Assembly: GCF_057098645.1 (NCBI RefSeq)
Contig: NZ_CM169472.1
DNA length: 64,000 nucleotides
Reading direction: 5' to 3' (one strand)
Below the pieces are notes generated by a model. The model was not told the DNA's origin and searched no databases. It was given only the letters and a program-made list of their open reading frames with translations. This document shows positions 48,524 to 48,673 of the stretch, one piece after another. The stretch's first letter is position 1; each line of letters opens with the position of its first letter. Both the position numbers and the translations under genes were made by a program.

Positions 48524-48622
48524 GCCTGATGCGCTACGCTTATCAGGCCTACGTGGTTTATGCAATATGTTGAATTTGCATGATTTTGTAGGCCTGAGAA
48601 GGCGTTCACGCCGCATCAGGCA
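48524..48622. repeat. BIME (two inverted REP units) downstream of glpD
   Basis: tgcctgatgcgctacgcttatcaggcctac (48524-48552) and gtaggcctgagaaggcgttcacgccgcatcaggca (48588-48622) are REP units in opposite orientation. Confidence 0.7.
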
Positions 48623-48673
48623 TGAACAAAGTGCACTTTGTCAACAATCTGACCTACTTTTTGAGTCAGAGAA

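Follow-up and report, generated by a model that had tools for sequence, protein, structure and literature searches.

The window analysed here, a stretch of 64 kb of DNA, runs from mrcA through glpD to glgP, and the part of it that was queried is 100% identical to E. coli O145:H28 RM12761. Next to glpD lies an accessory operon of four genes (48677-52280, minus strand). The product of gene 1 (502 aa) contains a PstS-like periplasmic binding domain (PF12849), and a Pfam scan of the other three operon proteins (199, 255, and 236 aa) returned no match; one of these three is assigned to the 'YbbD family' in RefSeq. glpD (plus strand) and operon gene 4 (minus strand) are convergent, and between their 3' ends sits a BIME-1 element composed of two inverted REP units, of types Y and Z1, an L linker, and a perfect 16-bp palindrome, ACAAAGTGCACTTTGT, whose end is 32 nt from the stop codon of gene 4 (48674-48676, minus strand). 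A second BIME-1 sits between mrcA and nudE, which are also convergent, and these two elements account for the only REP pairs in the window. A sequence-only reading of the window had described a BIME-type REP pair followed by the palindrome at glpD, and a near copy of the palindrome beside the REPs after mrcA. The REP pair is borne out, with Y REP, L linker, and Z1 REP all present, and the coordinates of both REP units and of the palindrome hold (Table 1); the near copy, ACAAAGTGCACTTGT at 8956-8970, carries a 1-nt deletion (one T is lost from the motif in the mrcA copy of this strain) and does adjoin the REP pair (8975-9003 and 9047-9071). At the glpD site, the MG1655 RefSeq record contains no repeat_region annotation. 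Directly after the glpD stop codon, a hairpin abuts the left end of BIME-1 with a 2-nt overlap; it has no T-run, and a terminator scan called no consensus terminator at this position (48476-48501). At other loci, the hairpin found in this place represents the left member of a terminator duplication.

Table 1. Coordinates of the BIME-1 elements at glpD and mrcA and of their parts within the 64-kb window.
Feature	Position	Strand	Basis
Hairpin directly after the glpD stop codon, TCAGGTCAGAT-TTCA-ATCTGGCCTGA	48476..48501	+	sequence reading; forms in RNA fold
BIME-1 left outer flank and left terminal inverted repeat, GAGACTGATGACAAACACAAAATT	48500..48523	+	kept in 5 independent E. coli loci
Y-type REP (palindromic unit), GCCTGATGCGCTACGCTTATCAGGC plus CTAC tail	48524..48552	+	sequence
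L linker, 35 nt	48553..48587	+	conserved across loci; Rfam ES036/CssrF match
IHF-consensus-like site in L linker, ATTCAACATATTG	48563-48575	minus	match to WATCAANNNNTTR, 1 mismatch
Z1-type REP, GTAG head plus GCCTGAGAAGGCGTTCACGCCGCATCAGGC(A), inverted relative to Y REP	48588..48622	+	sequence
BIME-1 right outer flank, TGAACAAAGTGCACTTTGTCAACAATCTGA, ending at the right terminus of the unit	48623..48652	+	consensus ATGAACAAAGCGCACTTTGTCAaCAATCTGA
16-bp perfect palindrome, ACAAAGTGCACTTTGT, subterminal motif of the right flank	48626..48641	.	sequence, family consensus
Right terminal inverted repeat, CTTTGTCAACAATCTGA-type, complementary to left end GAGACTGATGACAAA	48637..48652	+	
mrcA-nudE BIME-1 right outer flank, reverse orientation; holds 15-mer 8956-8970	8945..8974	-	
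mrcA-nudE BIME-1 body	8975..9071	-	Z1 REP 8975-9007, L linker 9008-9042, Y REP 9043-9071
IHF-like site in mrcA L linker, ACTCAATATATTG	9020-9032		consensus comparison

BIME-1 has been described as a 140-bp element that contains one Y and one Z1 unit and is present or absent among isolates (PMC1187871); its L linker is conserved and carries an IHF site (PMC3333891). The element at glpD contains one Y and one Z1 REP in opposite orientation and not in tandem, and no further REPs lie nearby. Conservation on the scale of ~140-145 bp, reaching beyond both REPs, was likewise found, the unit measuring 150-154 bp across 59 distinct loci. The mrcA copy as a whole occupies 8945-9071, and its right flank directly adjoins the terminator hairpin of mrcA (8928-8941). 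On the reverse strand, the order of Y, L, Z1, and palindrome-like motif in this copy is that of the glpD copy, so that in both copies the motif stands on the Z1 side of the Y-L-Z1 unit. Of 5,425 E. coli genomes, 5,422 contain the mrcA BIME-1.

The name BIME-1 is said to come from Gilson, Bachellier, and Hofnung, and the element is reportedly the same as RIB (Boccard and Prentki 1993) and RIP (Oppenheim et al. 1993); newer terminology would class it as a REPIN. The window elements resemble BIME-1/RIB/RIP in their opposed Y and Z1 units, the long L linker with an IHF consensus, their occurrence as single extragenic copies at the 3' ends of transcription units, the conservation of ~140-150 bp that includes sequence outside the REPs, and their presence or absence among isolates. 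There is no structural difference; only a local T-for-C change distinguishes the glpD copy, in which it makes the flank motif a perfect palindrome. The finding itself is thus the already-known canonical single-copy BIME-1, and the palindrome is the conserved end of this repeat. Judging by the 140-bp size, the flanks described here are probably the external motifs of Gilson 1991, Bachellier 1994/1997, and Boccard and Prentki 1993.

Two Rfam families overlap the elements. The ES036 (CssrF) model matches the L linker of both copies, at 48545-48587 on the minus strand (39.3 bits vs. a gathering score of 37.6) and at 9008-9050 on the plus strand in the mrcA copy (30.4 bits, below the gathering score), and the REP-derived naRNA4 (CssrE) model weakly matches the Z1 REP at 48591-48627; neither model reaches the palindrome. 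The ES036 'sRNA' family is the BIME-1 L linker, and its matches mark BIME-1 copies rather than a dedicated sRNA gene; both ES036 and naRNA4 are BIME-derived sequence. A weak Rfam rsmX match at 8856-8947 was rejected, as it is far under the gathering score and overlaps the coding end of mrcA.

The palindrome belongs to a flank that is conserved throughout the family. When five loci (glpD, mrcA, entD-fepA, rhlE-ybiA, and yhaC-rnpB) were aligned, both flanks were shared and the repeat extended past both REPs. The consensus of 59 loci reads TGAGACTGATGACAAACGCAAAATT, Y REP, L, Z1 REP, and then ATGAACAAAGCGCACTTTGTCAaCAATCTGA; it contains the left flank found at 48500-48523, upstream of which conservation drops, and its limits are GAGACTG on the left and CTGA on the right, with a sharp fall outside. 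The palindrome lies within the right-flank consensus, ATGAACAAAGCGCACTTTGTCAACAATCTGA, 3 nt past the Z1 REP and 11 nt short of the right end of the unit. A 31-mer from the right flank, always unannotated, is found in 5,425 of 5,426 E. coli genomes, with a median of 13 occurrences in each.

The earlier reading had proposed a genome-wide search for the palindrome and its co-occurrence with REPs, and such co-occurrence was found when ACAAAGYGCACTTTGT was searched for in one genome per species (at least 120 loci listed). Among the matches listed, all 33 exact enterobacterial sites, in E. coli, E. albertii, and two Pseudocitrobacter genomes, adjoin a Z1 REP (at an offset of 3 nt after it) or, in a single case at mrcA in another strain, a REP remnant. 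The 88 sites in other phyla, again among the matches listed, occur singly per genome, are mostly coding-like, and lie without a REP. In Escherichia strain SCPM-O-B-8794, the mrcA copy has a perfect ACAAAGTGCACTTTGT and a partly deleted Z1 REP. A full-text literature search with the motif sequence gave no match.

An accidental likeness between the two window motifs might be considered, since about one perfect 16-bp palindrome is expected per 64 kb and the window holds two, compared with ~1.1 in shuffled sequences. Chance is refuted by the recurrence of the motif in the window (2 matches at ≤2 mismatches vs. 0.03 expected) and by its identical position relative to Z1 in dozens of loci from four species, and the probability left to it is negligible. 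The second perfect 16-bp palindrome of the window, CCATTATCGATAATGG at 8883-8898, is located at the 3' coding end of mrcA and occurs at chance-level frequency. Taken together, the five-locus alignment, the 33 REP-adjacent sites, the 59-locus consensus, and the counts of the 31-nt flank argue that the palindrome is a subterminal part of BIME-1. It is very probable that positions 48500-48652 constitute one BIME-1 copy and that the palindrome is a segment of its right flank with no separate identity. The recurring palindrome is therefore REP-associated, as the 33 enterobacterial sites among the matches listed indicate; it is not the distinct repeat family that had been suggested but a fixed-position, integral part of the ~150-bp unit.

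The dyad symmetry of the motif is not a family trait. The consensus 16-mer, ACAAAGCGCACTTTGT, is imperfect, with C opposite A at pair 7-10; the window palindrome differs from it by a single T for C at position 7, and K-12 carries the imperfect ACAAAGCGCACTTTGT at the same glpD site. Replacement of the consensus C by T in the window strain thus turned a normally imperfect motif into a perfect palindrome. When metagenomes were scanned with the Z1 REP and the right end as anchors, so that the 16-mer was free to vary, 22 distinct loci were recovered, and only one of them had a perfect palindrome. Pair 5-12 was AT in 8 loci, CT in 6, and CG, AG, TG, and AC in 2 each; changes in the right half were uncompensated, and no compensatory changes in the 16-mer were seen across the 22 independent loci. 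Compensatory evolution, which one copy (ACAACGCGAACGTTGT) had suggested, vanished in this unbiased sample. Positions 1, 2, 4, and 11 were invariant.

These data bear on the proposal that the palindrome is a protein-binding site, more specifically an independent site for a dimeric regulator that stands beside the REPs by coincidence or through recruitment and controls glpD or the accessory operon. The perfect 16-bp dyad of the window strain and the four invariant positions are what such a site might show. However, the consensus is imperfect owing to the C/A clash, pair 5-12 varies without covariation, and symmetry is lost without compensation across the 22 copies, so that the dyad is not kept as in an operator. 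Nor does the motif occur independently of the repeat: no enteric copy lies away from a REP among the matches listed, and the same motif stands beside the unrelated genes mrcA, fepA, ybiA, rnpB, barA, pitA, and fbp. Moreover, the glpD site is located between convergent 3' ends and not near a promoter, and a scan of 48300-48900 gave no promoter-like or terminator-like sites. Nothing here indicates a protein-binding palindrome, and control by a regulator at this site is very unlikely. The left half of the 16-mer is nevertheless conserved beyond what is expected of a merely neutral passenger, and the invariance of positions 1, 2, and 4 leaves room for some sequence-specific constraint on this half, which is possible.

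A role for the palindrome as a transcript hairpin of its own, serving as a terminator or stabilizer for the minus-strand operon or for glpD, is similarly improbable to a high degree. A stem of 6-7 bp with a 4-nt loop can form, and its position 32 nt past the gene 4 stop codon would suit this function. The stem is AT-rich, however, and the isolated DNA hairpin (-3.4 kcal/mol, z = -0.18) is no better than shuffled sequences; there is neither the GC-rich stem nor the T-run of an intrinsic terminator, the 16-mer shows no covariation, and the right half of the palindrome is engaged elsewhere. In the minimum-energy folds of both strands, it pairs with the left end of the unit, TGACAAAC. The whole unit folds as one long hairpin (DNA -34 kcal/mol, z = -5.8; RNA z = -8.4 and -7.2), and the consensus left end, GAGACTGATGACAAA, matches the reverse complement of the right end, CAGATTGTTGACAAA, at 12 of 15 positions, forming an imperfect terminal inverted repeat. 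A local alignment of the ends matches at 19 of 22 positions and extends into the duplicated hairpin consensus, so the terminal repeat proper is the 12/15 match. The right terminal repeat includes the last 5 bases of the palindrome (48637-41, within its right half). Given the uncompensated symmetry, the weak hairpin, and the pairing of the ends, the right half of the palindrome is best assigned to the terminal repeat, of which the left half would be an internal inverted copy.

We therefore favour BIME-1 as a ~150-bp, non-coding unit in the order left flank, Y REP, L linker with IHF site, Z1 REP, and right flank. In the arrangement proposed here, the right half of the palindrome would continue into CAACAATCTGA, giving a right terminal inverted repeat complementary to GAGACTGATGACAAA; the left half would be an internal inverted copy of the right terminal segment; and the left end would pair with the right half of the palindrome, closing the stem. 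The right flank would be conserved because it belongs to the end of a unit that is copied as a whole. This last step draws on the terminator hairpin that is duplicated around related copies and is single in empty alleles (see below).

The sequence-only reading had also taken the REP pair and palindrome to mark the glpD side of the accessory operon. Comparison of this junction across strains with and without the operon showed that BIME-1 does not track the four genes. Homology to the window continues through the glpD-proximal hairpin and the left flank in 2,377 of 5,425 genomes and ends exactly at the glpD stop codon in ~3,050 of them. Strains O103:H2 and 4/1-1 possess the operon, as a divergent allele of 85-91% identity, without BIME-1; their intergenic region is 51-52 nt long and contains a different hairpin. 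Relative to these strains, homology is absent over a 250-bp block (48461-48710) that contains the glpD hairpin, BIME-1, and the final 12 codons of gene 4. The two strains were accordingly rejected as a simple empty site for the glpD BIME-1: because the whole block is non-homologous, they represent a different haplotype and not one member of an insertion/deletion pair. Outside the block, the operon alleles are 85-91% identical and glpD is 93-99% identical.

K-12 shows the converse situation. It has retained BIME-1, the palindrome motif, and the last ~60 nt of gene 4 (48674-48733), but the operon was removed by an internal deletion of 3.3 kb (48734-52059), which begins in the 3' part of gene 4 and ends within the PstS-like gene 1; yzgL of K-12 is the remnant left by this deletion. 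In strain M12, homology to the window breaks at 48635/48636, inside the palindrome (..ACAAAGCGCA|TATACAACC), and is followed by a 76%-identical remnant of gene 4 and then by a fimbrial operon (a fimbrial island). M12 represents a third configuration of the glpD-glgP interval. As regards the marking of the operon boundary, the M12 break is thus the one observation that stands in its favour, whereas the operon without BIME-1 in O103:H2 and 4/1-1 and BIME-1 without the operon in K-12 speak against it; BIME-1 does not mark the operon boundary.

A related idea is that the BIME, and the palindrome in particular, acts as a recombination or junction signal and sets the limits of the variable glpD-glgP segment. 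Strain-specific 'loops' have been reported to be enriched in BIME-1 (PMC1187871), and both the M12 break and the position of BIME-1 within the 250-bp block that is non-homologous to the other operon haplotype would agree with such a role. Yet the endpoints of the K-12 deletion (48733/48734 and 52059/52060) lie inside genes 4 and 1 and not at the BIME, operon-positive strains without the BIME exist, the near-fixed mrcA copy carries the same motif with no variable region adjoining it, and the single breakpoint in M12 is an anecdote. We regard a junction signal as improbable, if somewhat less so than a regulator site or a separate hairpin. The glpD-glgP variable region is not organized around BIME-1.

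A duplicated, locus-specific intrinsic-terminator hairpin of 10-26 bp or more flanks about 40% of BIME-1 copies on both sides. The exact flanking repeats measure 10-23 bp; one near-perfect repeat is ~26 bp long (with a loop deletion), and one imperfect repeat is ~40 bp long. A shared flanking word of at least 10 nt was found for 10 of 28 elements, compared with 6 of 754 mismatched control pairs; of these 6, two or more are orthologous loci. In an independent metagenome set, ~9 of 23 loci had the flanking hairpin repeat. The duplication extends from 1-3 A before the stem through 2-3 T after it.

Filled and empty alleles are available at three loci, namely rutG-ymdF, uspB-pitA, and the fbp terminator, where the duplicated hairpin is 22-26 bp long and the empty allele has a single hairpin. 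At rutG-ymdF, Nissle and O157 are empty and have one hairpin, and K-12 and a cryptic-clade strain are filled, each with a 154-bp BIME-1 between two copies of the hairpin. The elements of the K-12 type and of the cryptic clade are only 85% identical and lie in opposite orientations; either two independent insertions at one target or an ancient inversion involving the palindromic duplicates could account for this. At uspB-pitA, 1,940 genomes are filled and the sampled remainder is 174 bp shorter; one short allele was read directly and has a single hairpin. barA-gudD, with a 23-bp duplication, was rejected as a source of an empty allele because it is filled in all E. coli. At the junctions, the left end of the element is marked by GAGACTG and its right end by ATCTGA. 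The filled and empty junctions thereby define the mobile unit, in which the palindrome lies 11-26 nt from the right terminus. On this reading, the upstream hairpin would lose most of its T-run and the downstream copy would keep it, so that the element would join the 3' UTR. As present-day roles of the unit, the literature describes REP hairpins as 3'-UTR stabilizers or transcription attenuators and the L linker as a binding site for IHF; for the glpD copy, such roles would be predicted.

Neither window copy has a clear flanking duplication, the longest shared word at glpD being 6-7 nt. As a conjecture, the right side of the glpD copy perhaps retains no more of the glpD hairpin than its 3' arm and T-run (AATCTGACCT-ACTTTTT), fused via a shared CAATCTG.

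From these observations, we tentatively suggest that BIME-1 is or was a ~150-bp non-autonomous mobile element with imperfect terminal inverted repeats that inserts specifically at intrinsic-terminator hairpins and duplicates the whole hairpin. Its target duplication might, on the same uncertain footing, be set by structure and vary in length (10 to 26 bp or more), starting at the A-tract and ending 2-3 T into the T-tract, and the palindrome could possibly be a subterminal end motif of the mobile element. If this were true, it would imply that an extruded hairpin or cruciform is cleaved at its two feet in a staggered manner, or that a replicative mechanism has the equivalent effect; it would also explain the location of BIME-1 at the 3' ends of transcription units, where the terminator copy upstream of it is weakened and the one downstream is intact.

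Two groups of mobile repeats invite comparison. REPINs are reportedly REP doublets mobilized by RAYT/TnpA-REP (Bertels and Rainey; Nunvar; Ton-Hoang). They share with BIME-1 the inverted REPs that fold as one long hairpin, as the glpD copy does, the flanks conserved beyond the REP, tens of copies per genome, and presence/absence polymorphism. In searchable papers, the mobility of REPIN/RAYT is described without target duplication, and its mechanism is called unknown. The published IS200/IS605-like single-strand 'peel and paste' predicts no target duplication, whereas BIME-1 often duplicates a whole terminator hairpin; no RAYT gene was found within the 64-kb window. MITEs with an IHF site (such as the Neisseria Correia element) and ERIC/IRU are likewise small, non-coding, intergenic units that bear a central IHF site between imperfect terminal inverted repeats and have a long-hairpin transcript; target duplication is a further resemblance at the level of the family. 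The terminal repeats of BIME-1 agree with this pattern, with the imperfection noted above (12/15 in the consensus). Flanking repeats occur in 10/28 and ~9/23 copies, but they are hairpin-sized and variable in length, unlike those of a MITE, and neither window copy shows one. MITEs duplicate short targets of constant length (TA, or 2-9 bp) and have a known cognate transposase family; none was identified for BIME-1 here.

For annotation, no new motif, operator, or island boundary should be entered for the 16-mer, which belongs to BIME-1. The customary 'RIP' feature of ~98 bp should be lengthened by ~25 and ~30 bp to include both flanks. How REP/BIME elements spread is a question some 40 years old, and the terminal-repeat unit, the hairpin duplications, and the filled and empty alleles lead to testable predictions. 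Duplication of the terminator hairpin is not described in the searchable literature, which does not include the primary BIME-1 papers; if those papers do not already describe it, this side result may outweigh the main finding.

The hairpins beside BIME-1 also vary in the orientation of their loops. In two pairs of orthologous or duplicated terminator hairpins, one of them at fbp, loop inversion is the only difference, with CAAG vs. CTTG in the first pair and ATTGCT vs. AGCAAT at fbp. These loop differences are hairpin 'flip' events.
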